This document shows, one piece after another, positions 7,206 through 39,260 of a DNA stretch of 64,000 nt. Position 1 is the first letter of the stretch, and each line of letters begins with the position of its first letter. Position numbers and translations under genes: made by a program. Source of the stretch: Christensenellales bacterium (GTDB lineage: Bacteria; Bacillota; Clostridia; Christensenellales; Aristaeellaceae). The notes beneath the pieces were generated by a model. That model was not told the origin of the DNA. It worked only from the letters and a program-made list of their open reading frames with translations, and searched no databases. The stretch is from NCBI GenBank assembly GCA_040768845.1, contig JAXGME010000004.1, forward strand, positions 106,771 through 170,770. Direction: 5' to 3'.

Positions 7206-7226
7206 CGCATTTAGGAGGGCATGATT

Positions 7227-8819: not shown

Positions 8820-8887
8820 AACAACGCATTTTTTGATAAAAGACCGCCTTCCGCTGGCGGAACCGGCTTGATTTGGAGGAGAGTATT

Positions 8888-9028
8888 ATGCGTCTTCACG
8901 GCTTATCCGGACGCAGGGCAAGGAGAAAGCGCCTGTGGAAGAAGAACCTTGTTCTGATTTCCTTGGTGTTTGCGCTGATCCTCAGCACGATGGCGGTCAT
9001 CGCGGAGACGAGCGCCGTGGCATCTGCA
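8888..9028 (+). other. Sec signal peptide or signal-anchor of the giant protein
   Basis: MRLHGLSGRRARRKRLWKK (basic n-region), NLVLISLVFALILSTMAVIA (h-region), ETSAVASA|SS (AxA-type cleavage candidate after residue 45 or 47). Confidence 0.7.
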
Positions 9029-24000: not shown

Positions 24001-27000
24001 CGCCGATGTGAACGCCGCCTCGCTGACCATTGAAAACAGCTACACCGCGAAGGCCAACGCGGAAACGGCCCAGTCCACGGGCGGCGGCGTAAACGCTTCG
24101 GCCGTTTCCGGGAAGACGAACGTGGCGAGCGCGTCGGTGGGCATCCTCGCCGTCGCGGAGCTGCGGGGCGTGCCGGGCGCGTCGGCCCACGCGGTTTCCG
24201 TCGTCGGCGCGGTCAACGTGAAGGCGGCCGGCGTCGCGCAGGCGGTGGCGCTGGTGCAGGCGCCGTTCATAGCCCTCGGCGGCATCAGCGTCGCGGCCAA
24301 CGTGGTCGGCGCCAGCCTGGCGGGAACCCAGCGGGCGCGCATCCTCGATGTCCGACTCTCGGCGGGCTCCGTGACGGTGCTGTCCGAATTCAATAAGGGC
24401 AGGACGGACGGCGCGACGGCGACGCTTACGGGCCCCGGCGCCAGCGTGACGCTGGTGGAAGTCAACATCAACTCGGCGACGGCCACGGCCGGCAATTTGG
24501 TGGCCGCGGGCGTTAAGGGCGCGGACATCAACTGCGGCGCGCTGACCGTCATGGTGGACGCCACTTCCAATGCCGTCGCCAGCACGATGAGCGGCTCGTC
24601 CGTGGGCTTTGCGGGCCTCGGCGTGACGGTGATTACCGCGCTGGCCAACGGAGTTTTCGATGCCTTTATCGAGGACTCCGCCGTGGGCGCGGGCGCCGGC
24701 GCGGTGAATGTCCAGGTGGCGCACACCTCCCGGGCGGATGCGAAGGCCGCGCAGCCCAGCGGCGGTACGATCAGCCTTTCGGGCATCAGCATCGAGGGCA
24801 ACAAGGCGACGGCCACGGTCGGCACAAAGGCCGACGCGCGCGTCACCGGCGGTTCCATCACCACCACCGGCGCGCTCACCGTCCAGATTATCGGCACCGC
24901 CACGGCGCATGCGCAGATCCAGGGCGAGAGGCTTTCCATTTCGGTCGGCAGCATCGCCGTCAACCTGGTGCGGGCCGACGTCGCGGCGCGGCTCGGCGCC
25001 AGGATTGACCAGACTACGATCAAGGCGGGCACAGTTTCGGTGACGGTGAGCCTGAACAAGAAGGACAGAACCACGGGCGCCGTGGCGAGGGTTGGCAGCG
25101 CAGGCTCCGGAGGGGGCAGCCTCTCGCTGTTTGGCGGAAGCGCCAGCAGGGGCGACGCGCTGATTACCGCCATCGTCGCCGCGGCGGTGGCCGGCACGGC
25201 CATGGACGCCGCACAGCTCAACGTCTACGCCGACGTCAACGCCTACGCCAATGCGGATATCCTTTCGCCGAGCGGGTCGCTCAGCCTGTACAACGCCTCC
25301 GTGGTGGAGACCGCGGCCGACGCGGCCGGCAGCTACAGCGCCACCGTGGATACCACGGGGCAGGGGGGCGGTCAGGCGCTCAGCGTCGGCGGCCTCGACA
25401 TCAAGGTCACCTACTACGCCACGAGCACCGCGGCCACGGGCCCCGCGGGCGGGGTGAGCGCGAGTGTCGTCAATTCGAGCATGAACAAGGCGACCGCGCA
25501 GACGAGGCTGAGCGCCGCGGCGGGGCTTTTGGGCAGCGGCCGCCTGGAGGTGTCCGGCAACGCCAATGTCCAGGTGATCGGCCGCGCGAAGGCCGTCACG
25601 GAGGGCAGAACCTACAATCTGGGCATTTCCGGCGTCAAGATCGCCGTCAACTGGACGAGCGCCACCCTCAACGTTACCCAGAGCGCCAATGTAAAGAACA
25701 CCGGCACCATGACCATTGGCGGCACGCTGAAGATCAATTCGCAATTTGTCAGGGACGAAGGCTACGGCGGCGCGACGGCCACCACCGGCGGCGCGGGCGG
25801 CGGCAGCGTGTCGATTCTGGGCGCCACCACCAACGTGGCCAGGGCCATCGTCGCCGTGGAGATCTACGCCGGCATCACCAACGATGCGCTTGCCGTGCCC
25901 GGCCTCATCACGGCGGGTGCGGTGGACATCGACGCCTTGGCCAGTACCCTGTCCACAGCGGCGGCAAAGACGGGCTACGGGGTTTCGGTGGTTACGATCG
26001 GCAATCTGGACGCCGTCGCCATCAGCTACTCGACGGTGAAGGCATACATCCAGAACGCCCTCGTCGAAACCGCGAACAGCACATCTGTAAACGCCACGTC
26101 CGTCGCCGGCGCCAACGCCTCGAGTGAAGCGCCCGGCGGCATCGGCATTGCAAGCGGCACCAGCGCCAAGGCCAGGGCGTTTGTCGGCATGCCCGCCCCG
26201 GGCAACCTGTCGGATGACGACAGGTCGGGGCTGGACGGCCTGCTCGGGCAGAAGCCGCAGACCGTCAGCGCCTACGCGAGCGCGGCCTCCGTCACCGCGG
26301 GCGGGGATATCACGATCAGGGCCTACAACGAGGGGTATGCGGTATCCAACGTGGCGAAGGGCACGACGGTCTCCGGCGGGTCCATTTCCAGATCCTCGAT
26401 CCCGACGTTCTCGGAATACTACACCCATGCGCAGGTGCTTGGCGGCAGCGCGCTGGTCGCGGCGGGCAGCATCTCCATCACCGCCGAAGACCTTACCCAG
26501 GCGGACTCCGTGGCGAAAGGCCAGTCCATCGGCCTCATCGTAAACAGCGAAACCATGTGCGGCCGGAACTTCCAGGACGTCGTCACCCAGGTGGACATCG
26601 GCGCGTCCCTGCTCAAGGCGCGCGAGGCGCTGAACGTGCTGGCAACCTCCCGCGCGGTCATGGACGCGCAAACCGTCGCGGACGGCGGCGGCGCCTTTGA
26701 CGGCAGCAGCCTGTATGTGCACAACACCCTCTACCGCAACACCCGGGTCAGCATTCTGGACGGCGCCCATCTCGAGGCGGATTACGGAAACCTCGTCATC
26801 CAGGCGACTTCCGGCACCCGGGACTCCATCACCACGCGAGCCACCCTTTCCTCCGGCGGCGTGGTTGCGCTGGCCAAGATCCGCGGCTACACGACGGTGT
26901 CGAGCGGTGCCACCGTCAGCGTTGCGAGCGGCGCGCAGATTGTCGATACCTTCAATACCGTGCGGATCATCGCCGACGCGTCCATGAACAAGCTGTCGAC

Positions 27001-30000
27001 CGAACTGCGCGCGACCGCCGCGGGCTTGGGCGTCGCGCCCAACGTCCAGTCCAATACGAGCGTCACGATCAGGCCGCTGGTGGACATCGCGGGCTCCGCG
27101 GACAGGCGCGCGGGCATCACCGGGCGGTATGTGGAACTCCGCGGCATCACCAGCAAGCTCTACATCTACGATTACTGCTACGCCAGCGGCAAGGCGCTCG
27201 GCGCCAACGTCGTTGCGCATGTCCATCAGAATACGGACATTGATGTCGTGGTGAAGGTGTCCTTTGCCGTTATCAGGGCCTACGACGGCCTGACGATGAT
27301 CACCTCCTCCGCGCCCACCGGCGACAGCCGCAACGTGTACGCCCACTCCTCGACCAGCCTGAAGGCGATCGGCGAGTCCAACTCCAACGTGAGCATGACC
27401 TACGACAACAGCACCCGGACGGAGGTCAACACCGGCGTGGACGTGTACAGCGCGGACGTGTACATTTCGGCCGTGTCGCCCAGCGCCAACGCGGGCTACG
27501 ACCGCAGCAAGTCCGGCTTTATCGTCAAGTACCGCGGCGGCAGCCAGTCGCTGAAATCCTCGGCCGCAAGCTACATCAACTCCGGCGCGAGCTTCCACCT
27601 GGGCGACGCCGCGGCCGGCATCGTGATTGACATCTCCACCCGCAACGGCGTCACGCTGGTGCGCCAGGTGGGCCTCAAAAACGAGCGGCAAATCTGGACC
27701 ATTACTTCCGACGGCGTTCAGTTTGCCAACATCTCCAACAACCTGCCCGGCCGGATGCGGGTGCTGATGTTTACCGGCAGTACGAGTCCCTTCTTCAAGG
27801 TGTACAACCAGGAGTGGATTCCCGGGCTGACGCTGGTCAACCGGACGGACCTTGACGTGTCGTTCAAGGGCCTGGCGCTACGCAATACCAGCTTTATCGC
27901 GCCCACGGTGTCACTCACCTACCTGTCGAGCAGCTTCAGGCACAGCGGCGCTCAGGCTTCTGCCAACGCCACGCCGGCTGTCATCCTGGAGAGCCGCGCC
28001 GGCGGCGGCATCCACCTGGGCGGCTTGATCGCCAACCCCACCGGCACCGTGCGCATCCTCTTTACCGGCGAGAACCCCGGCGCGCTGACCTCCATCGGCG
28101 CGATGAGCACATCCAGCGGGCTGACAAACGTCGCCCCGATCTGGGCGCACGCGCTGACGATCTCCGGCGCAAGCAGCGTCGGCACGGCGTCAAAACCGAT
28201 CCTGGCCTTCCTGTTCGGCCTTGGCGACGAGGATCCGTCGGTCAGCGCCGTCGCCACGGGCGATATGCACATGGAACTGACGCCCGCAGAACTGAAGATG
28301 GTGGCCTCCATTCCCAACTCCCCCGACACCACCGCCCTTAAGTACAGGCTGCGCCTCGTCCAGGCGCTGACGGACGGCGTGAACGCCATCCGGCTCGGCG
28401 AGGGCCTGCGCATCTATCAGAAGGCCGGCACCTCGGTGGTGGCCATGCCGCAGCCCGGCACGCTTCTGTACCTGGTGGACGCGCTGGTGGGCCTGTCCGG
28501 CAACGTCGAACTGTCCAACCGCGACGCGCTGAACCACTACCTCGACAGCTACGATCCGGTGAGCGGCGTCTACAGCTACCAGCTGCCCAACGGCACCATG
28601 ATCTACACCGACGAGGAGGGCAGCGTGCTGCGCATCGCCGAGGGCGGCGTGGACTTTATGGTGAGCGATTTCAACTTCACGCTGAACGAGAGCGGCGCCG
28701 TCACCCAGATCAGCCTCGCGCAGGGCGTGCGCTTTGACGTGGAAAGAGGTCTGTTGTCCATCGAGGCGGGCTTCAACTTCAAGGCGCTGCTGTCGGCGAT
28801 CAAGGGCTCGTGGATCATGAACCATCTGGGCACGGGCACCGACCAGTTCACCTTCCTGTACGGCTATCAGCAGGGGAACGACGGGATCTATACGCCGCTG
28901 GAGTCGACGCTGACCCTGTGGCGCACGATCGGCAACCGCAGCTACTACTTCCTCACAAACGACACGATCACTCAGGACAAGATCTTTTCGGGGGACAGGG
29001 GCGTTTACATGCTCACCTACGACGCAACCGCCGACGTCCTTGCCGCCTACCACATTTCCTACGAAAATACGCTGGACGGCGTGGGAGACGAAGAAAATCT
29101 CATTCACTTCAAATGGGACGCTGACGATGACGATAATGCCAGGTTTGACATCACGTGGTTGAACGGATACGACAAGGATTCTCCCCCGCTGTATGGGTTG
29201 CCCGAATGGTGTGCCGAGTTGAACGGTGCGGAGTTGGTCAAGCGGGACAATCCGCAGACCTATGTTACGCATCTTCGGCTTCCGTTCTTTGAGCTGTCTC
29301 CCGACCTGTACCTGGTGTACAGAATCAGCGATGGCGTACTTTCTTATCTGTATGATGTTGAGGGGAACCCATCGTCCATGTGGAAGTCGGCCGCGCTGAG
29401 TTATTACTCCGTTGATTCCGCGGGCATTTATGTCATCGCGGCGGGCACGGAGCTGAAAAACGGCGTAAGGGTGAACGAGGACTATTTCTTCACCATTGAT
29501 TCCGGGAAGTTCACCGAAGTGGTGCGTGCACCCTACCACTACGTCGACGGTGACGGGACAAACTGGTACGGCGGCGGTACGTACTATCTGGATTCCTATG
29601 CGCCTACCCTCACTTATGCGGCAGCCGCGTCCATCTCGCTGTCCATCGGCAAGGCGGAGGGGAAGGATTACTTCCAGATTGGGTTTGACGGCGACGAGGG
29701 GGGCAATGTCACCTTTGAAGGTCCGGTGGAGGACATCCCGATCAAGGGTACCGCGTTGCCGCAGAACCACGTCCGGAACGGCAGCGGCTACCGCATTACT
29801 GCCTCCATGTACATCCACGAGGATGGTTTTGCCGTGATGTTCGCCACGGAGCGCGTTACGGATGAGAACGCGGCCAATTACGGCGAATACATCATCCCGA
29901 TGGTTTCGGGCTACGCCCGGTTTGCGGCCATGTACGACGGCGTCACCTATCGGTCGGACAAGCTGACCGCAGTCAACCTCCTCAATGCGGCCGGCGCCGC

Positions 30001-33000
30001 CGCCTTCGCGCCCATAATCACAATCCTCGGGTACGACGCAAGTACGGGCGCGATGCAGCAGGTGATGCTTGAGAGCCTGACGGGCGACGACGTCGGCAGC
30101 GTCGCCGTGGATGTGGAGGGCCGCTACTATCTGAAGACCGACGGCGGCTGGACGCTGATCGACGCCAGCAGGATTACCACCACCACACAGCACAGGACGG
30201 GGCTCATCATCAACGAGGAGCCGGAGGAAAAAGCGGACTGCGACGTGACCACCGTGACGATTGAGGGCATCCTGACCATTGAAACCACGGTGATTGCCGA
30301 AGGCACCGCGCGGGATGGCGAGATTGTGGACATCGTGTACACGCTGACGGGCAGGGACGGGACGATCGTCAGCATGCGCGGCCGCGTCGTGTTCCCCAAC
30401 GGCGCCACCGGCGCGCAGACTTCCGTCAAGCTGGCCGCGACGGAGTATCTGCTGGGCAACATCTCCGGCAGCAACGTGACCCTCGAAATGTCCGATTCCC
30501 AGGGCTCTATCCTGGACGGCAGGGCGGACGAAACCGCGCCCAACGTCAGCGCAACGGGCAACTTTGCGCTGGTCAGCGCATCTTCCGGGTCCATCGGCGC
30601 TGCGGCCAGGCCTCTGGCCATCGTCGTGGACGGCTATGTGATGTTCCGCGACCTCAGCGCCCACCGGCGGCTTGCCACGGATGCCTTCCTCAGGGCCGTG
30701 GACGGCAACCTCGCCTTTGAACCCGGAACGCGCGTCGAGGGTGCGACACTGGAGGCCGAGGCGGCGAATGGAAGCATTCTGTTTACCGACTTTGCCGCGG
30801 TCGCTTCCGCAGGCAAAGCGGCCAAGGTAACGCTGCGCGCGAGGGATAACATTACCGGAAGCCAGCGGCTGGATGTCGTGGACAGCAACGTCACCCTGAC
30901 GGCTGAAGGCGATATTACCGTGCCGGTGGTTACCGGTGCACAGGGCGCGTCCATTCAAATGGACGCGGACGGGAATGTCCGGATCGTCGCCGACGACGGA
31001 CTCAGCGTGGATCTCAACGCCAGCGCGATGGCCGTCGTCGCCGGTGGGTCCATCACGCTGGGCAATCTGCGTCTGGGCAGGGCCGCGCAGGGCGCGTCCG
31101 CCGGTTCCACCCTCAACCTGACGGCAGTGGATTTCATCCGTGCGGGGGACGCCAATCTGGACGGGAGCAAGCTTATCGCCGCCACCAATGACGGTGGCAT
31201 CACCATGGGCGCGCTGACGGGCACGTACGGCTCGGAGATCCGTCTGACGACGCATACGTACAGCGTCCTTGGCGCCGACATCCAGACCGACAGCGTGACG
31301 CTCGACGGCAGCCGGATCGTCTTTGATGCCTACAATGACATTTATATGGGCAATCTCTCCGCGGTCAACGCGTCCAACGCCCAGATCATCGCGTCGGGCA
31401 GCATAACGGCGGGCAGCGCATGGCTCAGCGCCAGTACGCTGAACGCGCTGGCGGAGAACGGCAGCATCAACATGGGCGCCGGCACGGCGCAGGAGCGCTC
31501 ATTGGTGACGCTGGACGCGGACGGCAGCATCCTGACCGGGAACGTGGAACTGTCCGAGACAAGCCGGATAGAGGCCACCGCCCAGACCGGAACCATCACC
31601 CTTGGAACCCTGACTGCCCGGCAGGCATCCAGTGCCTCGCTGGAAGCGGAGGGCGATATCCGCGCGGGCGACGTGACGCTGGCGGGGAGCACGCTGGACG
31701 CGCTGTCCCACAGCGGCGGCATCGCAACGCAGAACATCTTTGCGGAGGGTCATTCCGTTCTCGACTTTGACGCGGGCCGTGACATTCGCTTCCCGAACAT
31801 CACCGCCATGGACAGCGATATCCTCATGGACGCCGGAGGAGAGATTGCCTTCGTCCTGGCGGACTTTGTCCGCAGTTCCGTGGACATGACCACCCATGAC
31901 GACCTGGATTCGTCCACCGCCGGAGACATCACCTTTGACATCGTCGAGGGGATTGACACCGAGCTTCGCATGATCGCGGACGGCGGCGGCATCTACACCC
32001 TCAACGACTGGAGTTATCTGTACCTGCGCGGCGGATATTTCGTCACCCTTTCCGCGAGGGACGATATCGGCACCCTGGCGCGGCGGCTGATCGTAGACAT
32101 TCCCGCTGAGATGGGCCTTCGGGTGCTGGTGGTTGACAACTTCCACATCGACGCCCTGGATCTCGCCGGCGAGATCAAGTTCCTGCGCCGGCGGCCCGCC
32201 AAGGATGTGCGCGGCGGGCGCGATGAGCACGGCGTCAACCGTCTGGGCGACTGGCTCACGGGGGGCGGCATGCAGACGCTGTACCCGGCGCTGGCGGCGC
32301 AGGCACCGGATGCGCTGGCGGCCTGGCTCGCCGCGCGGAATGGCCGCGAGGTATGGTCCGCCCTCATCACCGACCAGGCCCTCAGCGCGCTGATCGCGCA
32401 GCGCGAGATTGCCAAGAGCGATCTCAAGGCGTTGCTGGTGGGCGGCGGCTTCAACACCAAGGCGTTCAACGCCGCGTATGCCGCAGGGCAGTACGATCTG
32501 CTGGCCGGGAAACTCCGGGATGCGCTGAATGTGGCGCCGCCCGCGGCGTCCGCCAAGGCCTCGGTCAGGTACGTGGACGACGCCCGCGCCCTGGACTGGC
32601 TGGCCGCCGCGATCGACGCGGGGCTTGTGGAAAACCTGGGTGAAGCGATCCACGGCAGCATGACCGCGGAAGACCTCATGGCGATTCTCGACGAGGCCTG
32701 GCGGAACGCGGACTATCAGGGCCGCATGGACACCGCGCCGGCAGACGGGCCTGCCCGCGCCTTTGTGATGACCATCGGCGAATCCTTTGGCGAGGGCCGC
32801 GTCTGGAACGCGGGGGACATTCTGATCCTGCAGCTTTCGGGCGATCTCACCGCCGCGGACATTCATTCCGACACCGGTGATGTGACGCTCGCAACGCCGG
32901 GCGGAAGCATCCTGGGTGCGGCTTCGGGCGTCGCCAACGTGCGCGGCCGCTACATCAACCTCTCCGCGGCCGGGTCCATCGGCGGCGCATCGCAGGCGCT

Positions 33001-35887
33001 CACCACCGAGCAGCAGATGAACCGCCCGGTGCTCGTCGGCAACATTGTGAACCCGCCGCTCGACGGGGCCGGGAACCCGGTGATAAATCCCGACGGCGGC
33101 TATGACTTCCTGCTGGTGGCTCGGCCGGTTCTGAACGTGGCGGGCCTGCCGGCGCTGGACGACAGGCTCAGGCCCATCCTCGAGTGGACGGTCTGCGTTC
33201 AGATCGGCTACGATTGGCTGCGGGTGGAATATCCGGGCGAGGCGACCCGACTGGACGCCGTATCCGGTGCGGACATCTTCATTCATGAGTTGACGGGCGA
33301 CATGGGCGTGGGCAGTCTGACGGCGGCGGGCGACGTAGGCCTGAGCGCCGCGGGCAGCATTCTGGATGTGCGCGCCGCAGGCGAGGCCATGCTCAACATC
33401 GCGGCGGGCGGTGACGTCCGCCTGAGCGCCGCCTCCGGCACCATCGGCACCCGCGAAAATTACCTGGACATTGATGTGGACGGCGTCGTGACAGCGGATG
33501 CCTCCGGCGACATCAGCATTGCCCATGCGGCGGACATGATCCTCGTCGCGGACAGCAGAAACGGGCAGGTCAACGCCGACGCGGCGGGCGATCTGGATCT
33601 TTCCAACACCGCGGGCGACCTCGTAATCGGCCCGATCTATGCCGGGGCGGATATCACGATCACCGCGCAGGGCAGCATCCTGCCGGGCGACAGGCTGGGC
33701 CGCGACGCGCAGGTGAAGGGCCGCAGCATTGCGCTAAGCGCGCTGGGCGGCACCGCGGGCACCGCGGCCGCGCCGCTGGATGTGGACACTGACGCACCGG
33801 GCGGCGGCACGCTTTCGATCTTCGCGGCCTCCACCGTGTTTGTGCGGGAATTGACCGGAGATCTGCGGCTTGAAAGGCTTGTATCCGGCGGAGATGCGAC
33901 GCTCATCATTCCCGACAACCTGATTGACGCCGCAAATCCGCTGTGGAACGACGCGGCGGCGATGTACCTTGCGTCCTTTGAGGCCTTTGACCGGTTCACG
34001 GCCCTGTCCACCATCGCTGAGGTGCTTCGCGGCTACGCCGACCGGCTGTGGGAGAAGCTGGATGCCGCCAGCGAAAAAGTGAACGCCCTGGGCAGCGCGC
34101 TGGCGGACCTGATGGCGAGGATTTCGGACCTCGAACGCCAGATTGCCGATATGGATGGAGATCCGTCCAGGGCCGCGCGCCTGAAAAAGCTGAAGGCAAA
34201 ACAATCTGCGCTGGCAGCCCAGGCCGCGTCGCTGACCGAGCGGCTGAACGAGGCGCTGCAGCGGCAGGCGGCAGCCCAGGCCGCCTTTGACCAGGCGGAC
34301 CGGCAGACCGACATCGCGGAGGGCGAAGCCGCCGCGCAGCACGGCGTCGTCACGGACAGCGTGGCGGAAATGGTGCGGCGCATCCGCGGCGCCATCGGCC
34401 GCGACACCGTGGAGGTTGCCGGAAACCTGCTGCTCCGCGCGGGCGGCAGCATCGGCGAGGCCGACCACGCGCTGTCCATGCTGGTGAGCGGCACGGTGAC
34501 GGTCGATCAGGGCGACAACCCGTCGGACGGTCTGTACATCGCCAGCGGCGGGCCCATCACGTTCTCGGGCATCAACGCCTACGGCAATGTGGGCATCATC
34601 GCGCTGGGGGACATCCGCTTTGCACCCGGACGGGGGCTGAGCGCGGAGGTCGCCTCCCTCCTGTCGCTGAACGGCGACGTGGGCAGCAAAAAGCGCCCGG
34701 TCCTCGTGAACGCGGGCGAGGTCTCCGCCGCCGGAAACAACGTGTACCTGCGCAGCGCCAGGAATCTGCGGGTGGATACCATCATCGCGGGCAATGAGGC
34801 GCGCATCCGGTCGGACGGCGGCGTTACCGGCGTCCTGCGCGACGCGGGCGACGACCGCACCCACTTCTCCGCCCCGATGCTGGATATCGAAGCGGGCGGC
34901 AACGTCGGTGCGGCCTCCAACCCGCTGCGGCTCAACGTGGACAGACTGAAGCTCCTTGCGGGCAATGTGACGCTGGCCAACATCTCCGGTGCGCTGGACA
35001 TCGTCCGGCTGCGCGGCAACCGCGTGAGGATTGACGCGCTGGGCGGCGTGCTGGGCGGGCCGATTTATGCCGACAGGCTCACCATCCGCGCCGGCGGCTC
35101 CGTGGCGACAAAGGACGATCCGCTGATCCTATGGGTGCCCGGCGATGTGCGCATCACGTCGGTGTTTGGCCGGGTGTATTACATCAACCGTTACCGGCCC
35201 GCCGTTAAGGACGCGGTTCGGGTGCTCTATCTGATGCGCTTCCCGGTGACCGTTTTTGCGGACGGTCAGCCCCGGACCCTTGCGCTGTACATTGCGGCCA
35301 CCCGCGGGGTGGACGGCTCCGTCACCATGCGCGGCGCTTGGCTGCTGGCGGAAGAGCGCGCTGCGGACTTTGCCGGGTTGATAAGGCAAATTGCCGCCCA
35401 GGGTGTGGCGAACCCGGCCTTCATCTTCGCGCAGCCGCTGCCCGGCCTTGCGCAGGCGCTCCGGAGTGCCTATCCGGGCGCTGTGGTTCAGGGCGGCGCG
35501 ACGATGTGGATTCTCGGCGCGCTGATCGGCGCGGATGCGCCGGATATCGAGGCGCTGCTTGAGGATCTCCAGCAGATTCTGACGGCGGATCGCGAAGCGC
35601 AGGCCGTGCGCCTGATCGAGGCGTTTTCCGCGCGGTGGGGCGAGAAGTATCCCGAAATCGCGGCCATGCTGTCGGAGGGCTGGACCGACCGCGCCGAGTT
35701 CTTCCGGATGCGTGCGGCCGACAGAAGGGCCGCCTGCGACCTTGCGGGCTTTGCGCCCTTCCTGATGGCGCTGCAAGCGGCGCTGGGTGCGGACGGCGGC
35801 TTTGAGAATGAGAACGCGCTGACGGATGCGCTGGCGCCTGTGCTTATTCAGGGCATCCAGGCTTCCGCGCTGGAGAAGGCGGCGTAG
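8888..35887 (+). CDS. giant (8,999-aa) secreted or surface repeat protein, beta-helix / filamentous-adhesin-like; function unknown
   Basis: One uninterrupted frame runs from TTG 8873 to TAG 35885-35887. The best start is ATG 8888, 6 nt after GGAGGAG (8875-8881). GC3-dominated codons occur in this frame only; every other frame breaks within 0.2-4.4 kb. The N-terminus is a basic stretch plus hydrophobic helix plus AVASA. The body is Ala/Gly/Val/Thr/Ser-rich periodic sequence. Confidence 0.9.
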   Translation: MRLHGLSGRRARRKRLWKKNLVLISLVFALILSTMAVIAETSAVASASSLEAFEAPPSLDGGASPALLADSGALVTLDSGSGASEPTAAPEAEQEPEPAAAPEAEQQPEPTAAPEAEQEPEPTAAPEAEQQPEPTAAPEAEQQPEAEPEPTAAPEAEQQPEPTAAPEAEQEPKPTAAPEAEQPPEPTATPEAEQQPEPTAAPGIEAQAYVAIPEAGQSSEPQGMVLAAEPLGAIAAKGGVDTAGAKDTVEAYAIPAGSAYIREAAGLLTYKNDATANAIQNALQDALTTARDAVNKTATIVVTDGTYNGGVNLDASAGSSLSELLLSIFGSADAAKGVKLQIVAEDALNEAGEATANSAGGAQVDGSVTISGLDVVLAGLYFSTRAMVSVSDADSFSYYGTRLSDDVDISVSRVKKNIKVDLGEGDDKASVRIKQAPTVSASMTVTPEMGQDATAIFEALTSFKASEISQLGASLADAVRSFLATLNGSISGMVVSDSLTVDIDGGAGEDEIAVKHINSTDLTMASGDAGSTYGFAIDLSKVDTSIRGGAGSDVLGATGGMELTYGRKVVSALMEYVAEEFDIAGSNLRFFGGDGDDVITVDTTAAFPSFRGVTVDVAGGAGFDRLHLTGKLNDRIDAASRITGNTSELTIEALAEITFLGDLIDGIRIPFTKRMVVNSTGVDAFTDALKNKNTVALSALAPGAAAQSFTDYVLDASGPVDYTANLAIPGGGLMLANIVADGGESLTVTRLVAPDFNLLLSGGEITVGGEVRGKNILINSVVTDIAEAAIEQTIIEDDLNEENTVDIEVGFYKANGAAKITVAPSANLVATQAIDMLASLTLDKPYLPTGDIFNPFTLKLGEVNIDIRGALAAGGSIRADALYSSTVSATNGLLKVVIPFGVAAITGDTRITVGGGARLNAGAGVLLRAASDTSAEAEATMGALKFTLALAVVQAETHVKVGDTAAIAAGGAVKLSAMNAVRAEAAALGKKPSMLALKPASGGYIAGSFVFQDTSATIADHASVSSGAALSVRSESRLNTATTTVSIPASQSDGSGGESFLPTDQIRLMSIVPFVETKLLKVEKAPNQTAFGKLLSGVTGSNSLGNKFTDATKTASSSGTPSSTKQVVGALALAYAGNTNSALIDTTGSVTAAGALDVTALAATVNQVRADGSLYKTPMAQAEDAKNSVGAGVAIAVTNHDNSARIIAGSIAARGLSVSAVTGRIVSSSIAKAGHIPKTSSFGLGGAVSVHVVIGRNEALVGSGAAYNLTGGAVNVVSTGNGAFTTVGDASGKRVTPSLSFGGITIPLKPTTGSEKDSVGIGAGIAVSVTGADFIAKVEDGVRFGTAVLDGVNVKASFSGTETIHAAAGAAGGTSIVPVLALAVSGVYSQAYLGTQSGALSATGDVAISAANSMKRSVAADAAAAGSGVGVGASFGIAVINDSAEATLKRSVTAANVLVDAKSVSRLTMTIKASAVGAMPPTSTSTGDAASGKTQEDYDKMKDDGWPLDDNGDDMRSLFNEGEADQMADKNTQAAADLAAGANTNNVNAGSVNQLSQDRPRAETNEGSIQVAASLALNILSNKSLATVGGGIAVTATDKVRVRAVNDTDATISANASATKSTTGVGVAVAINYVRYQNKAKIGASTLRAKSLLVEADIVEADNKKTVEEILTKLLTYFATTEGTEFLMDALLAVEGQASLDALLAANGLYGADYAALTATEKESLRKLIIQQLTEQLTSGQRGDAAGALLSGLIESTVKDFFDTLTDPDFILNMVLGAPDASIGNLFSQLALKGKVAAAAIQEAIVLSLAQKFGNPGELDGIGCLISTSAISGVGAANVGVAGSAAIAVVDGETEALIESRTGYVDGDIAVTEDAAIRARAAQKVYTTATASADKNGKPVKNKDDSSGTSVGVGASAAISIVDVDAIASLGSYRRLSAGTLAILSEAQNDIDSVTIAGADPIARREAVKVTPPGIGQEVSQPAANNTTTKDISVDAAVALAVITNNVLAQVLEHASVTTTGHDTVKTGVVDGAGVEEMVNFLLSAYQRGQTKASASGFAVAGDKAAVGAAIAVNIAMSDVRATFAGVGLVAGSAKITALTSNEDEANALATVVGASLDRYFDRLRTALRLGSVGSGGGSGKMNATIVNKINGFLPKAKELTANVPFSAKLFDLLGVKTPAAPSSSTASGAATGNAGGNANSQSLDDSAKKEQSINLAAALGVNVTNHCATAEMTGSLTAKNAEISAADRSNFRTTGSGATVTLPSQQNANNIALGIAVTVNRNKAHSTVGGSLTATGSGSNNGAIRVTSAATQNMDGAYRGLLGAQAVACAIAGSGGKVGLAGAVAVMVAGAESIARIAEGALVRGGAISILATDQSKLAVRAGSVSATGASAGVGASFALIYAESLTRATIGKNAQVYGGSLKLSAEKLRVDSTDYQFPLGISTLFTVDASADRSGIVNLKTSGGYALELNLGMDDVMKTLDMLNFLASVNYYVEAIAGSVVGSSDAKLALAGSVAMLFTNNETAAEVGDGAVIVLTDGSLDVDASSDTVARLIGGAVAATTGKSGVGVNIAALADEDMVRASIGAGAKLGASGDVTVDAAAASDTWAVTVAAGVSTGSGPSIGGSINMIVSGNTVWAGALGADGDTAGGEEITAGGDVRISADNVAKMTLISASLGAGSGVAAGGTAAVIVTNNDTRAALGAGAKLTAGRSAAISARSAETMLNILASLSGSTGKVAAAGTLGVMVSQSLTQASVGAQAQVTAADGGVQVTADGAVTQVVVMAAASGSTGGAAVGGTVNVGVFDHQVNALVGQGAKLQAQKLAQGNNVIVRASADNSTILITFAGAASSSSAAIAGAIPVVVVSDKVQVDVGSYVIIEAGDSIAIISRAESGLYNIAGSVAVSAGQAGAGATIATLVIGNSVNTRIGNRAKMIAHAVMEDAALPAGVQLPNRDARRRGVLVSATANSTLAMISGSGAASTGNAAVAGVVHTLVLKNSVKAVVGDHVVMVAGRESSTPGSTKTGDGEVIVESDDDSHIYNIAGAVSASSGAGVGASVVVMVYDKRMEASVGDGGTIIATDDVTVQSTSKDTVILLALSFAGGGNAGVAVSASALVFENDLFAALGGSVFSDGDVLVNADSETTMVNTAAAVAVSGTAAVTPVAIVTYFEGATNALFRVGADILAAGGVSLRAKSKEFITSDAAGVSASGTASVSGTVDVVLSKQKTTAVTGSGVVIDAAALNVNAADDYQLVGVVATIAGSGTAGVAITALVSVLHNTVSAILGGNNRITTRSGDVSVNASAKRDIGAYAGTVAAGQVGVGGTLMVVVAGGRMKQDAADQLSASFKPGEFMDGAFSSSHGAASGYEKDDVGAMLEGDGDQQSKTNVGSGGSFDGTGGYKDDSVSGDVSVAPGKNADNSKAQAPGADTSFGSNGDIDSAAAIGSAKPTYASQDATSAIIGAGTVVNSARDILVTSGDDLVADLIAGTITGGVYAAVGAGVAVAVLFSNVEAKVEDGATLHAGRDIKILATAGSTTVEDTDTQRTGALKDSFSAGSNNPMDLTRRTIRAISITGGGALVGVSVSLASVNVFSTVIATLKGDVTKSASLTVMASCDYPNVLAATLTASAGGAAVGASVAAAVFGATVESSVAGDAKISGTQAVNVASRLNTGAISGAGAFAAGGVAGNGAVALVVNISRVDTFIGRGATVSRSDALALSVNADVDTAARAYVLSVAVSGSVSIGLSAAVTVIKPEVLTYIGTTPTGHTAHSGAGAAGGSVNAWRVEVKNDVTSLAQSLIAAFSAGGVAVNGNVLLTFNFTDAVAALSGATVTADAVSINAYMDSTARSVVLAGTAGSAAIGVTVSYVHLRSSNIARIDGGMLEADAIGLYAGKLGRANTATAEATAVAGSIGAVAVGLNTAIADNHAQNIAEILNGNIAADTILEVYAVGTATATARVLGFSAGVVNVAGTYVLALLRSEQQARILGGSVTAGELFVKSYLNNAAGDSTLAQIVTGSGGLLSATVNMALAYGRASSVAVVAPAFMTIGGSAAIGSYGYQQVRTEILNLLDASAYGAAVMVGFAYAQGEFNARLAVTDGPAAVDINAASITVESIYTAAAVSRVTPSAGGVSLSVASAKANAAVALVSVSATAAIDGTGALSAGQVTVLTQGVASSLAEVLTPKYQVGVATVAVNAILSKLSARQKAYILGVSIINASSVTVRSELNKGKTTGASAKLHATGAGVSVGLLDVRANIAVALSDSESIAFVVGVPISGGALLIQSDASSIAEAKIDTASFGAAAVSLGLNALYAYANGDFRAYAVTAGAAMNPASLAVQVNHTATSEADTTQSPVSAAFSAVSAKTNLAVAVTGLVAEAAILGDALRLVADGILDQATLSAYGLNGVGGSVSAATVDVLVAGIAAATTTVAQAAMELNYASVGVNVLISRLTAVQNAVISGATISGGAVTVRSTLNAGGTGSARAMLSGSKVNISLYDGKANAVYALADAASIACIDQSAIDLTGALQVLSEGSSLAGAGVVQGSGLGLVAVGLTIVEADASGDFRADIQTAADKPVKAASIRVGANYTALAQAATTQAAGGVSGSLVSGDTNMATAKVTNRARAAVTGGGGVWVTGDMIVSAIGTAVALAVVEEPTASLSGISVVANVLSAVLASEQKAYIAGGQIKAGRVNVVSEYNKGAPSSASGGATAALRGTGSGVSLHFVNVGVNTAAAAVRAVSAAYISGADILAGTGAVTVTSDATSLASALVEQSSSAGYAAFGVTTVNAAADGTFLAYLAANGASVNAASLTIANHYRAKADAATAQSSGSVEHSVLSGRTNAATAKVGTWAEAQVYGAEQSGVIDGSLTIAGALTVTVTGIAAARAEVAQPTVSLAGISITANILDASLKSYQRARISGVGLRAGSVAVASNCNQGAENSADGGATAVLRGTGIGGAGAFKLTLVGAEVNTAIALADATSIAALEYANVLAGTGALSIRSNGTSLAWAGVEQASGVGLATFGVTIVKADANGSYAACLDASGADVNAASLTIENSYTAKANAETAQSTGGGVNASAVSGKTNVASASVGILAVAELRGVPGASAHAVSVVGAVNVKAAGVAQAVALVQAPFIALGGISVAANVVGASLAGTQRARILDVRLSAGSVTVLSEFNKGRTDGATATLTGPGASVTLVEVNINSATATAGNLVAAGVKGADINCGALTVMVDATSNAVASTMSGSSVGFAGLGVTVITALANGVFDAFIEDSAVGAGAGAVNVQVAHTSRADAKAAQPSGGTISLSGISIEGNKATATVGTKADARVTGGSITTTGALTVQIIGTATAHAQIQGERLSISVGSIAVNLVRADVAARLGARIDQTTIKAGTVSVTVSLNKKDRTTGAVARVGSAGSGGGSLSLFGGSASRGDALITAIVAAAVAGTAMDAAQLNVYADVNAYANADILSPSGSLSLYNASVVETAADAAGSYSATVDTTGQGGGQALSVGGLDIKVTYYATSTAATGPAGGVSASVVNSSMNKATAQTRLSAAAGLLGSGRLEVSGNANVQVIGRAKAVTEGRTYNLGISGVKIAVNWTSATLNVTQSANVKNTGTMTIGGTLKINSQFVRDEGYGGATATTGGAGGGSVSILGATTNVARAIVAVEIYAGITNDALAVPGLITAGAVDIDALASTLSTAAAKTGYGVSVVTIGNLDAVAISYSTVKAYIQNALVETANSTSVNATSVAGANASSEAPGGIGIASGTSAKARAFVGMPAPGNLSDDDRSGLDGLLGQKPQTVSAYASAASVTAGGDITIRAYNEGYAVSNVAKGTTVSGGSISRSSIPTFSEYYTHAQVLGGSALVAAGSISITAEDLTQADSVAKGQSIGLIVNSETMCGRNFQDVVTQVDIGASLLKAREALNVLATSRAVMDAQTVADGGGAFDGSSLYVHNTLYRNTRVSILDGAHLEADYGNLVIQATSGTRDSITTRATLSSGGVVALAKIRGYTTVSSGATVSVASGAQIVDTFNTVRIIADASMNKLSTELRATAAGLGVAPNVQSNTSVTIRPLVDIAGSADRRAGITGRYVELRGITSKLYIYDYCYASGKALGANVVAHVHQNTDIDVVVKVSFAVIRAYDGLTMITSSAPTGDSRNVYAHSSTSLKAIGESNSNVSMTYDNSTRTEVNTGVDVYSADVYISAVSPSANAGYDRSKSGFIVKYRGGSQSLKSSAASYINSGASFHLGDAAAGIVIDISTRNGVTLVRQVGLKNERQIWTITSDGVQFANISNNLPGRMRVLMFTGSTSPFFKVYNQEWIPGLTLVNRTDLDVSFKGLALRNTSFIAPTVSLTYLSSSFRHSGAQASANATPAVILESRAGGGIHLGGLIANPTGTVRILFTGENPGALTSIGAMSTSSGLTNVAPIWAHALTISGASSVGTASKPILAFLFGLGDEDPSVSAVATGDMHMELTPAELKMVASIPNSPDTTALKYRLRLVQALTDGVNAIRLGEGLRIYQKAGTSVVAMPQPGTLLYLVDALVGLSGNVELSNRDALNHYLDSYDPVSGVYSYQLPNGTMIYTDEEGSVLRIAEGGVDFMVSDFNFTLNESGAVTQISLAQGVRFDVERGLLSIEAGFNFKALLSAIKGSWIMNHLGTGTDQFTFLYGYQQGNDGIYTPLESTLTLWRTIGNRSYYFLTNDTITQDKIFSGDRGVYMLTYDATADVLAAYHISYENTLDGVGDEENLIHFKWDADDDDNARFDITWLNGYDKDSPPLYGLPEWCAELNGAELVKRDNPQTYVTHLRLPFFELSPDLYLVYRISDGVLSYLYDVEGNPSSMWKSAALSYYSVDSAGIYVIAAGTELKNGVRVNEDYFFTIDSGKFTEVVRAPYHYVDGDGTNWYGGGTYYLDSYAPTLTYAAAASISLSIGKAEGKDYFQIGFDGDEGGNVTFEGPVEDIPIKGTALPQNHVRNGSGYRITASMYIHEDGFAVMFATERVTDENAANYGEYIIPMVSGYARFAAMYDGVTYRSDKLTAVNLLNAAGAAAFAPIITILGYDASTGAMQQVMLESLTGDDVGSVAVDVEGRYYLKTDGGWTLIDASRITTTTQHRTGLIINEEPEEKADCDVTTVTIEGILTIETTVIAEGTARDGEIVDIVYTLTGRDGTIVSMRGRVVFPNGATGAQTSVKLAATEYLLGNISGSNVTLEMSDSQGSILDGRADETAPNVSATGNFALVSASSGSIGAAARPLAIVVDGYVMFRDLSAHRRLATDAFLRAVDGNLAFEPGTRVEGATLEAEAANGSILFTDFAAVASAGKAAKVTLRARDNITGSQRLDVVDSNVTLTAEGDITVPVVTGAQGASIQMDADGNVRIVADDGLSVDLNASAMAVVAGGSITLGNLRLGRAAQGASAGSTLNLTAVDFIRAGDANLDGSKLIAATNDGGITMGALTGTYGSEIRLTTHTYSVLGADIQTDSVTLDGSRIVFDAYNDIYMGNLSAVNASNAQIIASGSITAGSAWLSASTLNALAENGSINMGAGTAQERSLVTLDADGSILTGNVELSETSRIEATAQTGTITLGTLTARQASSASLEAEGDIRAGDVTLAGSTLDALSHSGGIATQNIFAEGHSVLDFDAGRDIRFPNITAMDSDILMDAGGEIAFVLADFVRSSVDMTTHDDLDSSTAGDITFDIVEGIDTELRMIADGGGIYTLNDWSYLYLRGGYFVTLSARDDIGTLARRLIVDIPAEMGLRVLVVDNFHIDALDLAGEIKFLRRRPAKDVRGGRDEHGVNRLGDWLTGGGMQTLYPALAAQAPDALAAWLAARNGREVWSALITDQALSALIAQREIAKSDLKALLVGGGFNTKAFNAAYAAGQYDLLAGKLRDALNVAPPAASAKASVRYVDDARALDWLAAAIDAGLVENLGEAIHGSMTAEDLMAILDEAWRNADYQGRMDTAPADGPARAFVMTIGESFGEGRVWNAGDILILQLSGDLTAADIHSDTGDVTLATPGGSILGAASGVANVRGRYINLSAAGSIGGASQALTTEQQMNRPVLVGNIVNPPLDGAGNPVINPDGGYDFLLVARPVLNVAGLPALDDRLRPILEWTVCVQIGYDWLRVEYPGEATRLDAVSGADIFIHELTGDMGVGSLTAAGDVGLSAAGSILDVRAAGEAMLNIAAGGDVRLSAASGTIGTRENYLDIDVDGVVTADASGDISIAHAADMILVADSRNGQVNADAAGDLDLSNTAGDLVIGPIYAGADITITAQGSILPGDRLGRDAQVKGRSIALSALGGTAGTAAAPLDVDTDAPGGGTLSIFAASTVFVRELTGDLRLERLVSGGDATLIIPDNLIDAANPLWNDAAAMYLASFEAFDRFTALSTIAEVLRGYADRLWEKLDAASEKVNALGSALADLMARISDLERQIADMDGDPSRAARLKKLKAKQSALAAQAASLTERLNEALQRQAAAQAAFDQADRQTDIAEGEAAAQHGVVTDSVAEMVRRIRGAIGRDTVEVAGNLLLRAGGSIGEADHALSMLVSGTVTVDQGDNPSDGLYIASGGPITFSGINAYGNVGIIALGDIRFAPGRGLSAEVASLLSLNGDVGSKKRPVLVNAGEVSAAGNNVYLRSARNLRVDTIIAGNEARIRSDGGVTGVLRDAGDDRTHFSAPMLDIEAGGNVGAASNPLRLNVDRLKLLAGNVTLANISGALDIVRLRGNRVRIDALGGVLGGPIYADRLTIRAGGSVATKDDPLILWVPGDVRITSVFGRVYYINRYRPAVKDAVRVLYLMRFPVTVFADGQPRTLALYIAATRGVDGSVTMRGAWLLAEERAADFAGLIRQIAAQGVANPAFIFAQPLPGLAQALRSAYPGAVVQGGATMWILGALIGADAPDIEALLEDLQQILTADREAQAVRLIEAFSARWGEKYPEIAAMLSEGWTDRAEFFRMRAADRRAACDLAGFAPFLMALQAALGADGGFENENALTDALAPVLIQGIQASALEKAA
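9140..9495 (+). repeat. in-frame 36-bp tandem repeat encoding (T/A)AAPEAEQ(Q/E)PEP, about 9 units plus a partial unit
   Basis: Near-identical 36-nt units (gccgcgccggaggc[ct]gaacag[cg]agcccga[ag]ccgacc) repeat directly. One unit carries an extra GAAGCCGAGCCC-type insertion. The encoded Pro/Glu/Ala-rich stretch looks like a spacer. Confidence 0.9.
10150..10775 (+). other. five dispersed GGxGxD-type (calcium-binding-like) motifs in the N-terminal region of the giant protein
   Basis: LGEGDDKA (~10151), DGGAGEDEI (~10397), RGGAGSDVL (~10526), FGGDGDDVI (~10658), AGGAGFDRL (~10740). They are separated by 27-82 aa and are not a contiguous RTX nonapeptide array. Confidence 0.5.
11560..20700 (+). repeat. 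divergent tandem array of a ~55-aa (~165-nt) Ala/Gly-rich repeat, probably beta-helix coils
   Basis: The anchor G-x-G-x-[SA]-x-A-x(5)-[ND]-x(3)-A-x-[IV]-G recurs, e.g. GVGVGASFGIAVINDSAEATL (~13170), TGVGVAVAINYVRYQNKAKIG (~13755), SAGVGASFALIYAESLTRATIG (~16065), GAGVGASVVVMVYDKRMEASVG (~18040). By eye I found 38 anchors between ~12.45 and ~20.6 kb, mostly 155-175 nt apart. Confidence 0.8.
20500..26050 (+). repeat. higher-order tandem array of at least 8 divergent ~230-aa (~690-nt) supermodules, each about four basic units
   Basis: Motif A (L...Q[KRQ]A[YR]I.G......V.V.S..N.G) occurs at ~20801, 21467, 22208, 22877, 23585, 24302, 24962 and 25649. Motif B (AS[LI].[VI]...[YH].A.A.A.T.Q..GG.S) occurs at ~21200, 21872, 22610, 23299, 24019, 24700 and 25389. 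Spacing is 660-741 nt. Confidence 0.8.
27650..30520 (+). other. non-repetitive, aromatic/Asp/Asn-rich, probably globular region of the giant protein
   Basis: The Ala/Gly periodicity is lost. The sequence is rich in Y/W/F/D/N (e.g. HFKWDADDDDNARFDITWLNGYDKDSPPLYGLPEWCAEL, YHYVDGDGTNWYGGGTYYLDSY). GC is visibly lower: about 47% in a 60-nt sample at 29101-29160. Confidence 0.7.
30520..35180 (+). repeat. second repeat class, FhaB/filamentous-haemagglutinin-like (G[DS]I..[AL]...G.I), interrupted by helical segments
   Basis: Examples: GDVTLATPGGSILGAASG, GDVGLSAAGSILDVRAAGEAMLNIAAGGDVRLSAASGTIG, ADITITAQGSILPGD, GRSIALSALGGTAGTAAAPLDVD, EAGGNVGAASNPLRLNVDRLKLLAGNVTL. The period is irregular, about 20-40 aa. 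Confidence 0.6.
33935..34345 (+). other. predicted coiled-coil segment near the C-terminus of the giant protein
   Basis: An Ala/Leu/Gln/Glu/Lys/Arg-rich, heptad-like stretch: LWEKLDAASEKVNALGSALADLMARISDLERQIADM...RLKKLKAKQSALAAQAASLTERLNEALQRQAAAQAAFDQADRQ. Confidence 0.6.
35180..35884 (+). mobile_element. IS256/Mutator-type transposase core-like segment (5'-truncated, DDE residues apparently lost) fused in frame to the 3' end of the giant gene
   Basis: It is collinear with IS256/IS1081 transposases as I remember them: YLM..V.V..DG...L.IA..GVDG....G.W...E.A.....L...A.QGV......+....GL.QALRSAYPGA..Q.....+....DLQ.I......EA..L+..F...WG.KYPEI...L..GW.....FF........GGF.N.NAL.D.L. Compare ...LDxFxxKWxxKYPxI...W...FFxFP...FPNxxAL.... 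The catalytic D/D/E positions read R, Q/P and A/F. Confidence 0.45.
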
Positions 35888-35906
35888 CTTTTTCGGGGGC
35901 AATTGC

Positions 35907-35943
35907 GCGGGGCGCGGCCGGGCGAAAGCCCGCCGCGCCCCGC
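35907..35943 (+). terminator. GC-rich stem-loop with a GAAA tetraloop downstream of the giant gene (possible terminator)
   Basis: GCGGGGCGCGGCCGGGC-GAAA-GCCCGCCGCGCCCCGC forms a 16-bp stem with a one-base bulge, starting 20 nt after the TAG. No clear U-tract follows. Confidence 0.45.
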
Positions 35944-36202
35944 CGTGCCCGGTGGGTGAATATTTGCATAAGGCCCGTAGTACGATGCTGGAAGCGGGGA
36001 GGGATGCACGCTGGAATACCAGGATTGAGCGGCCGCGGTTGAGACTGCCCGGACTTGCGGCATATCTATGGCAACGCCGCATAAGGGCGGACGGCGCAGA
36101 ATTTGGATTTATTAAAGCCGATCCGGGAAAAGCGCGGGTGGAATCCCGGAGAAGTCCTCGCCGCCCCTGCTGTCCAGCGGGTTTGGCAATCCTGCACGAT
36201 GG

Positions 36203-36236
36203 AAAAACGCCCGCCCGCTTGCGACGAAACGGGCGG
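36203..36236 (-). terminator. intrinsic terminator of the MerR-family gene
   Basis: On the minus strand, CCGCCCG-(12 nt)-CGGGCGG is followed by GCGTTTTTCC, 34 nt downstream of the merR-like stop. Confidence 0.5.
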
Positions 36237-36269
36237 AGAGGGGCGCGGAGGGTGCTGGAAAACAGGGAA

Positions 36270-36668
36270 TTACGCCGTGCCGGATCGGTCGCCCTGCGCC
36301 TTTTGATACTGCGCGTACTGGCGCGAGAAGAACTCAATCTTGCAGGCCACCTTGTCCAGATGGCGGTGCATTTCGTCAATCTGCGCCTCGACCTGTTTTT
36401 TGTGTTCGAGCAGAAGCTCGCACCGGCGCTTCAGCGTTCCGTCCCCTTCGAGGCTCAGGTCCACAAACTCCCGAATCTGCTTGATGGACATGCCGGTGTT
36501 CTTCAGGCATGTGATCAGGCCGATCCATTCCAGATCTTCGCCGGTGTAGCGGCGTATTCCGCTCGGGGTACGCCGGACGCTGGGCAGGAGCCCTTCCTTT
36601 TCATAAAACCGAAGCACCGTCGGACGGATATGCATCTTTTCCGATACCTGATGGATGGAGTACTCCAT
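36270..36668 (-). CDS. MerR-family transcriptional regulator (NmlR/AdhR-like)
   Basis: The N-terminal MerR HTH is YSIHQVSEKMHIRPTVLRFYEKEGLLPSVRRTPSGIRRYTGEDLEWIGLI. It is followed by TCLKNTGMSIKQIREF (Cys at residue 54) and a coiled-coil dimerisation helix. RBS AAGAGGTG. Confidence 0.9.
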   Translation of the reverse strand: MEYSIHQVSEKMHIRPTVLRFYEKEGLLPSVRRTPSGIRRYTGEDLEWIGLITCLKNTGMSIKQIREFVDLSLEGDGTLKRRCELLLEHKKQVEAQIDEMHRHLDKVACKIEFFSRQYAQYQKAQGDRSGTA

Positions 36669-39081: not shown

Positions 39082-39120
39082 GAGAGACCTCCTTGTCATC
39101 CTTAATACCTCGCAGATACT

Positions 39121-39148
39121 ATTATATACGATTGGGCGGCCCTGTCAA
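39121..39148 (-). promoter_or_regulatory. near-consensus sigma-A promoter of the isomerase operon (-35 TTGACA, 16-bp spacer, -10 TATAAT)
   Basis: On the minus strand, TTGACA is at 39148-39143 and TATAAT at 39126-39121. Confidence 0.65.
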
Positions 39149-39156
39149 TCGCGTCA

Positions 39157-39168
39157 GGAAACGTTTCC
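39157..39168. promoter_or_regulatory. perfect 12-bp palindrome GGAAACGTTTCC (LacI/GalR-family or cre-like operator candidate)
   Basis: An exact dyad with an AAACGTTT core and central CG lies between the two divergent promoters, 8 nt upstream of the minus-strand -35. Confidence 0.5.
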
Positions 39169-39201
39169 GAAATTCGCCGCGCGGGGCCGTGCCAGCCCGG
39201 C

Positions 39202-39230: not shown

Positions 39231-39260
39231 GGTCTGGATCACTCGGCTTCGGAGGTTCGG

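Follow-up and report, generated by a model that had tools for sequence, protein, structure and literature searches.

The subject of this report is the C-terminal end of a very large protein. The window, the one 64-kb stretch of DNA that was analysed, comes from a Christensenellales bacterium (contig JAXGME010000004.1) and carries a giant open reading frame (ORF) preceded by a gene for a TPR protein; all of the sequences compared come from metagenomes or metagenome-assembled genomes (MAGs). Read from its N-terminus, the giant product comprises a predicted signal peptide, a run of PEPTAAPEAEQQ repeats, thousands of residues of Ala/Gly/Val-rich repeats, a coiled-coil-like stretch, a final all-beta module and a terminal domain that resembles a transposase. 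The product is acidic (isoelectric point (pI) 4.7) and rich in Ala, Gly, Val, Ser and Thr, its internal repeats are divergent, and its predicted N-terminal signal peptide is its only strongly hydrophobic segment (Kyte-Doolittle score of 2.78). A Pfam scan of all 9,004 amino acids gave PF00872, at the C-terminus, as the sole match; the protein has no LPXTG, SLH or other known wall-binding domain recognisable by Pfam, and no C-terminal hydrophobic segment. We conclude with high confidence that the last 235 residues are an anciently exapted, conserved and non-catalytic domain that stems from the core of an IS256/Mutator-type DDE transposase.

The original prediction made for this DNA had described a dead IS256/Mutator transposase core fused in frame to the giant gene, and translation of nucleotides 35180-35884 reproduces exactly the C-terminal sequence that it quoted. 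The hmmscan comparison with PF00872 (Transposase_mut) that it proposed gave a significant match for the last 235 amino acids (E = 5e-15; 55.7 bits against a gathering cutoff of 21), with domain residues 23-184 aligned to profile positions 170-331 of 379. A phmmer search of the PDB sequences matched only the ISCth4 transposase of the IS256 family (6xg8, E = 4e-7), and the IS256 equivalog model of NCBIfam (NF033543) scored 43.3 bits, under its cutoff of 150. The collinearity with a transposase core is borne out by a BLASTP alignment with a genuine transposase of 421 aa, P0003: over 226 residues the two are 27% identical, with 5 gap positions, and the domain covers residues 179-404 of that protein, from the first strand of the catalytic domain nearly to the natural C-terminus. 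The stop codon of the giant ORF falls about where that of a transposase would. An AlphaFold2 (AF2) model of the 235 residues (predicted local distance difference test (pLDDT) 88.1; predicted template modelling score (pTM) 0.84) has an RNase H-like order of elements, b1-b2-b3-a-b4-a-b5, followed by a helical bundle. The best Foldseek matches to this model are the ISCth4 chains (E = 4.5e-11, TM 0.70), and retroviral integrase cores come next.

The domains of ISCth4 serve as a guide to what has been kept and what has been lost. Its residues 1-56 form the dimerisation domain, 56-108 the NDB domain, 108-165 the HTH domain, 165-261 and 325-407 the catalytic domain and 261-325 the insertion domain; the active site consists of D175, D241 and E348, and the CxxH motif of C262 and H265 (PMC7780238). 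Homology to the window protein sets in at residue 165, the start of the catalytic domain. The equivalents of residues 1-165, and with them the dimerisation, NDB and HTH domains, are absent, and beta-solenoid sequence stands upstream instead; the original prediction had put this missing part at about 170 amino acids. As judged from the alignment, the DNA-binding and dimerisation N-terminus is precisely excised. The predicted loss of the catalytic Asp/Asp/Glu and QRC..H residues also proved correct: D175 corresponds to M8788, D241 to Q8854, E348 to A8961, C262 to G8875 and H265 to M8878. In comparison with the IS256-family transposases (ISCth4 TnpA, 6xg8/6xgx; IS256 Tnp), the window domain has homologous catalytic and four-helix insertion domains in the same order of secondary structure, and it shares the G..LG.W, RGV and F..W..KYP motifs. 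The last of these, common to transposases, lies in the insertion-domain equivalent, which also contains the invariant residues that the family has in common with transposases (domain positions F149, W153 and Y157). Unlike the transposases, however, the window domain has no dimerisation, NDB or HTH domain, no DDE triad, no CxxH motif and no terminal inverted repeats; it is acidic, forms a clade of its own and is fused behind ~8,770 residues of a fibre that is predicted to be secreted. The positions of these and other features are collected in Table 1.

Table 1. Features of the giant gene and its immediate surroundings, in window coordinates.
Feature	Position	Strand	Remarks
Gene for 532-aa TPR protein	7221..8819	+	One N-terminal hydrophobic segment; co-oriented, ends 54 nt before giant ORF
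Giant ORF	8873..35887	+	9,004 codons; open-reading-frame call and translation
Probable ATG start of giant ORF	8888	+	Preceded by GGAGGAG
Predicted Sec signal peptide, MRLHGLSGRRARRKRLWKKNLVLISLVFALILSTMAVIAETSAVASA	8888..9028	+	Read by eye: basic n-region, hydrophobic core, AxA-like (VASA) site
Tandem 36-nt repeats coding PEPTAAPEAEQQ units	9138..9494	+	9.6 copies, 86% matches; right after signal peptide
Last all-beta (solenoid-like) module of fibre	34685..35179	+	Common to 63 representative giant-protein homologues; AF2 model
YxNxY motif (Y8770-I-N-R-Y8774)	35180..35194	+	Conserved end-of-fibre motif; C-terminal module varies beyond it
RNase H-like part of domain	35216..35494	+	Strands b1-b5 with helices; M8788 at nt 35234, Q8854 at nt 35432
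Alpha-helical equivalent of insertion domain (ISCth4 residues 261-325)	35495..35689	+	G8875..M8878 replace CxxH; W8879 family-invariant
C-terminal helices of catalytic-domain equivalent	35690..35884	+	A8961 at former catalytic Glu
GC-rich hairpin	35907..35943	+	15-nt arms, 93% complementary, 7-nt loop; 20 nt past stop codon

The loss of the active site is a property of a whole family. Residue counts were taken from ten aligned members, each of which (10/10) matches PF00872 individually. The column of the first catalytic Asp holds Met, Leu or Val in every one of the ten; the second Asp is kept in five and is Glu in three; the catalytic Glu is kept in two; and the His of CxxH is kept in none (0/10). 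Directly after the former His (+1), the family has an invariant Trp that transposases lack, and its deeper-branching members still show the WQxRxL...Y motif that stands ahead of strand b1 in transposases. The charge has changed as well. Family domains have a pI of 4.1-5.0 and a net charge of -5 to -26, whereas the cores of true transposases have a pI of 8.8-9.6 and a net charge of +4 to +10. Because the domain has turned acidic, DNA binding is unlikely. A sub-family of shorter proteins (P0013, P0032, P0033, P0039, P0040 and P0063; complete members are ~1,400-1,550 aa long) has retained the RNase H-like half alone, with DG at the position of the second Asp, and continues into a different helical tail that is rich in Glu; these proteins have no TPR neighbour.

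The fusion itself recurs well beyond the window. In an exhaustive HMMER search of 1.84 billion representatives, relatives were found that match across the beta module and the transposase-like domain to their own C-termini: P0006 is 45% identical (query residues 2-399 onto 1127-1528, to the C-terminus), P0007 is 42% identical, and P0009-P0012, P0015, P0016, P0029, P0033, P0039, P0044 and others belong here too. The domain stands at the C-terminus of 16 of the 63 representative homologues gathered by local iterative searches, and, when clustered at 50% identity, the proteins with the fusion make up at least 16 clusters, which stem from independent assemblies and show identities of 21-71%. Further, a genome scan for related loci, seeded with a close alignment (A3), returned ORFs of >3,800 codons (cut by the flank limit) that end with the domain in three other MAGs, all of them Clostridia: a Bacillota bacterium (L002; 71% identity), an Oscillospiraceae bacterium (L003) and Candidatus Pullichristensenella (L004). 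The junction is the same in all three, with the last beta module, the YxNxY motif, the transposase-like domain and the stop codon in this order. In one relative, P0012, the transposase-like domain is split over two frames (L009, ~22146-22454), which reflects a frameshift or sequencing error near the end. Another candidate, P0155, was rejected as a family member: it is a truncated fragment of an ordinary insertion sequence (IS), it neighbours an IstB gene, and its surroundings are unrelated.

These findings bear on how the gene came by its present end, for which the original prediction had offered two histories. In the first, an IS256-family element inserted or recombined at the 3' end of the giant gene and truncated it, and the remnant has been decaying neutrally, in frame by chance. 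Such an accident would explain why only the C-terminal two thirds of a transposase are left, why all of its catalytic residues are replaced and why the ORF stops near the natural transposase end. It also agrees with a word-index protein search, which gave no fusion relative except a broken copy of the same locus, L001. (That copy, at 1-5618 of JGI 3300045916, is 99.08% identical with 37 gap positions, and the giant gene is shattered there into small called genes; one fragment, P0008, is named "transposase-like protein", which shows how the domain misleads annotation.) However, an accident of this kind does not account for an identical junction in at least 16 protein clusters and three other genomes, down to 21% identity, and the 3' ends of the giant genes of L002-L004, which stop after the same domain, run contrary to a local truncation. 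Nor does the domain look like decaying DNA. Aligned with L002, the closest orthologue, its 235 codons show 68% identity, 2 gap columns and not one stop; dS, the synonymous rate, is 0.49, and the ratio of nonsynonymous to synonymous rates (dN/dS) is 0.48 (NG86; bootstrap 95% interval 0.33-0.70, with 0 of 2000 replicates at or above 1). Its codon-position GC (0.72/0.49/0.80) is retained and resembles the rest of the giant gene, whose third-position GC is 0.75-0.92 along the whole ORF, and its model is confidently folded. In a neighbour-joining tree, 12 family domains stand apart from 23 true transposase cores in 100/100 bootstraps, a split perhaps helped by the compositional shift and obtained with a simple tree method and a limited sample of transposases.

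The DNA past the stop codon, where the original prediction had thought an IS end might be found, tells the same story. Positions 35888-36270 contain neither TGTAAA nor TTTACA, and no inverted repeat of at least 16/20 matches joins this interval to the junction region; the hairpin listed in Table 1 is a terminator-like gene end, not an IS end. The 3' spacer of the giant gene has nothing in common with those of the related loci, a tblastx comparison of the downstream region with L002 revealed no synteny, and the 64-kb window holds no second transposase-like region. We therefore reject a recent insertion, because the fusion recurs, dN/dS is 0.48, terminal repeats are absent and the family splits from transposases in 100/100 bootstraps; we give it almost no credence. 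The second history, in which the core was exapted as a C-terminal domain, is the one that fits. The domain is under purifying selection, and its fusion to the fibre is conserved across genera; so far as the aligned sequences tell, the exaptation has a single origin, separate from the true transposases. Aside from the qualifications attached to the tree, one point detracts from this conclusion: at 0.48, the dN/dS of the domain somewhat exceeds that of the remainder of the gene (0.23-0.36).

What the domain does may be approached through the place that it occupies. All 63 representative proteins with the final beta module close it with the YxNxY motif, in which N168 of alignment A5 is invariant, and diverge thereafter. 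The transposase-like domain follows in 16; three have three SLH domains (PF00395, E = 7e-27); and about twenty have sortase-type signals or C-terminal membrane segments, the signals being LPQTG, VPTTG, LPRTG, MPRTG or TPTTG followed by a hydrophobic segment and a basic tail. When four alternative tails were scanned with Pfam, only SLH was recognised. Because every tail with a readable function is a cell-envelope anchor, the C-terminus appears to be the cell-proximal end in this family. The window protein resembles the giant LPXTG/SLH fibres of Gram-positive bacteria in its predicted N-terminal signal peptide and very long repetitive body, and among the true homologues of its last beta module are proteins that terminate in a signal of the LPQTG/VPTTG type, in a membrane anchor or in three SLH domains. 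In contrast to those fibres, it has no covalent or SLH-type anchoring signal, and the transposase-derived domain fills the slot. The original prediction had suggested that a C-terminal anchor might have been lost. The anchors that homologues carry in this slot (LPXTG-type signals, membrane anchors, SLH) lend that idea some substance, but the domain would be an old modular alternative to them, not the result of a recent truncation. The slot is thus highly modular, as seen in the homologues P0081, P0014, P0140, P0025, P0101, P0017 and others; the tails of the remaining representatives belong to at least three recurrent globular families, among them a Cys-rich "HYAQL" type, an "FRVGxRxLxIDL" type and an "IPV...EG" spacer type. 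Two of the homologues just named, P0025 and P0140, come from loci with stop-to-stop ORFs far longer than the called proteins (L017, 2-19891, 6,630 aa; L018, 2-17536, 5,845 aa; both flank-cut); these paralogues are giant as well, and the called starts of P0025 and P0140 are probably wrong.

Because the window protein has a predicted Sec signal peptide, the domain is expected to lie outside the cytoplasm. The giant protein would be exported by Sec, and the transposase-derived domain would serve there as a tether, without enzymatic activity, that binds another protein and so keeps the C-terminal end of the fibre at the envelope of the cell. As its receptor, the product of the adjacent gene, the membrane-anchored TPR protein, would be the best candidate. 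Among the roles considered, a tether seems the most likely because the corresponding position in homologues is taken by sortase signals, membrane anchors or SLH domains. We nonetheless assign the tethering role, an argument from analogy, only tentatively. As a whole, the reading to which we incline, without great assurance, is that an exapted C-terminal module, itself non-enzymatic, ties the fibre to the cell envelope, perhaps by way of the TPR protein.

The TPR gene is of interest in this respect since it keeps company with giant genes of this type. In L010, L011 and L015, the transposase-ended giant gene is immediately followed by a gene for a collinear, full-length TPR homologue with conserved Cys residues. 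A metagenome scan seeded with the TPR alignment alone found three full-length-type relatives, and two of the three, with sufficient flank (L019 and L021), have an ORF with a transposase-like end that stops just upstream. The TPR gene thus adjoins transposase-ended giant genes in six loci: the window, L010, L011, L015, L019 and L021. No TPR homologue was found beside the LPXTG-ended giant of L016, the Cys-rich-tailed giant of L017 or the SLH-ended giant of L018. This pattern of gene neighbourhoods suggests that the TPR protein and the transposase-ended giant protein are a functional pair. That the TPR protein is the very partner of the domain is possible but doubtful.

Several observations weigh against a tether that works through the TPR protein. 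The anchor role of the transposase-derived domain rests on positional analogy, and the slot is not exclusively one for anchors: at least three recurrent families of globular tails without a recognisable anchor occupy it. There is no TPR neighbour at the short family members L013 and L014, nor at L009, and five of the six TPR-linked loci represent one clade (their TPR proteins are 58-62% identical). In the window, the TPR gene lies upstream, 27 kb from the region that codes for the domain, and the survey of TPR neighbours did not cover the 5' flanks of L002-L004.

The C-terminal domain could instead be the distal head of the fibre, that is, the ligand- or substrate-binding tip of an adhesin, with the cell attached through an uncleaved N-terminal hydrophobic segment or in some other way. 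The window protein has no recognisable anchor, its N-terminal hydrophobic segment could serve as a signal anchor, several other globular tails fill the same slot, and the domain folds as a unit of its own behind a linker, all of which would suit a head. Yet the C-terminus is cell-proximal in the homologues with identifiable tails (sortase signals, SLH, membrane anchors), the signal peptide has an AxA-type cleavage site, and a membrane-anchored TPR neighbour is a better fit to a cell-proximal partner. We consider a distal head unlikely.

A model of the last 400 residues speaks to another possibility. In it, residues 13-168 are all-beta (pLDDT mostly >85) and the transposase-derived domain folds separately; the pLDDT dips to 62 in the junction linker, and with an overall pTM of 0.58 the orientation of the two modules relative to each other is not confidently predicted. 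A fold search with this 400-aa model gave, for the beta module, only a non-significant match to the beta-helix of tapirin (E = 0.12). The dead core might serve in assembly, either by oligomerising fibre with fibre or as a folding cap or intramolecular chaperone of the beta solenoid, and have no part in anchoring. The domain directly follows the last solenoid turn and is conserved along with the terminal beta module, and transposase cores are known to join multimeric complexes (PMC7780238). Dimerisation of ISCth4, however, is mainly the work of its N-terminal domains (PMC7780238), which are absent here. Homologues with the same beta module end in a bare linker and a sortase signal, and the solenoid therefore needs no specific cap; nor does the uncertain orientation of the modules help the case. 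A role in assembly strikes us as somewhat less likely still than a distal head.

The variability beyond YxNxY also invites comparison with the polymorphic toxins CdiA and Rhs, in which a long filament likewise leads to a conserved demarcation motif, beyond which the C-terminal module varies. By this account, YxNxY would mark off a variable effector as VENN does in CdiA, and the domain would be a delivered nuclease or other effector with an immunity gene downstream. The conserved fibre, its sharply variable end and the RNase H fold, a common nuclease scaffold, are what such cargo would predict. The domain differs from the toxins, however, in having no catalytic residues: no member retains the first Asp, and the window protein retains nothing of the DDE/CxxH set. 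Its surface is acidic, many of the alternative tails are plain anchors, and the domain is conserved and co-evolves with the fibre instead of being shuffled. Further, no small immunity-like gene follows in the window; the giant gene is succeeded by a MerR-type ORF on the minus strand (the type read from sequence) and then by an aldo-keto reductase gene. We regard toxin cargo as quite improbable, and this reading and that of a pseudogene are the weakest of the rivals.

The domestication of transposases is, of course, already known. Domesticated Mutator-like transposases of eukaryotes include FHY3/FAR1 and MUSTANG, and RAG1 and Cas1 are other exapted transposase cores. The window domain is like them in being a transposase-derived domain that the host has kept, under purifying selection and at a fixed locus, with the element ends lost. 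Those proteins, however, are intracellular and directed at nucleic acids, and they usually retain DNA-binding parts, whereas the window domain is the catalytic core alone, dead, acidic and part of a giant protein that is predicted to be exported. For these three reasons (a dead core, its acidity and its attachment to an exported giant protein), a role with nucleic acids is unlikely for it. To our knowledge, the known domestications (RAG1, Cas1, the TnpB-to-Cas12 lineage and FHY3/MUSTANG) all retain a nucleic-acid job, and in the literature that we searched, we met with no bacterial surface or giant protein described as having a domain of Mutator/IS256 origin. What is new here is a dead, acidic DDE core, apparently secreted, in an anchor slot.

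If the tether reading is true, fibres could be anchored otherwise than by sortase, SLH or membrane anchors, and this would be the first exaptation of a transposase without a nucleic-acid role. More specifically, a DDE core that acts as an extracellular docking domain, together with a co-encoded, membrane-anchored TPR receptor, would be a new, non-covalent means of anchoring the giant fibres of Clostridia; we offer this as a speculation that may well prove wrong. It would seem that the RNase H-fold core of a transposase can be put to new use outside the cell, simply as a structural or binding module. There is also a practical consequence: annotation pipelines will call these gene ends "transposase", and the giant genes risk being taken for IS-disrupted pseudogenes. 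The comparison defines a modular C-terminal slot after YxNxY in a large, uncharacterised family of giant proteins from gut and digester Clostridia, and the TPR protein, as a candidate partner, offers a concrete experimental handle.

The remaining features of the locus can be described briefly. The PEPTAAPEAEQQ units behind the signal peptide are probably a flexible spacer. Farther along the fibre, internal repeats of ~230 aa, with 30-45% mutual identity, lie at ~20870-26000 of the window (amino acids ~4000-5700 of the giant protein), and weaker repeats are spread over amino acids 1000-6100. The giant genes of L002 and L003 are immediately followed by a gene of the metallo-beta-lactamase fold (Lactamase_B_2; 11695-12603 in L002 and 11894-12844 in L003), a place that in the window is taken by the MerR-type ORF and the aldo-keto reductase gene. 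Beyond these, at 39093-43486, the window encodes a 710-aa ORF without a Pfam match and then a 752-aa protein with seven PG_binding_1 repeats, and in L003 a gene that combines PG_binding_1 with a YkuD L,D-transpeptidase is found near the giant gene.

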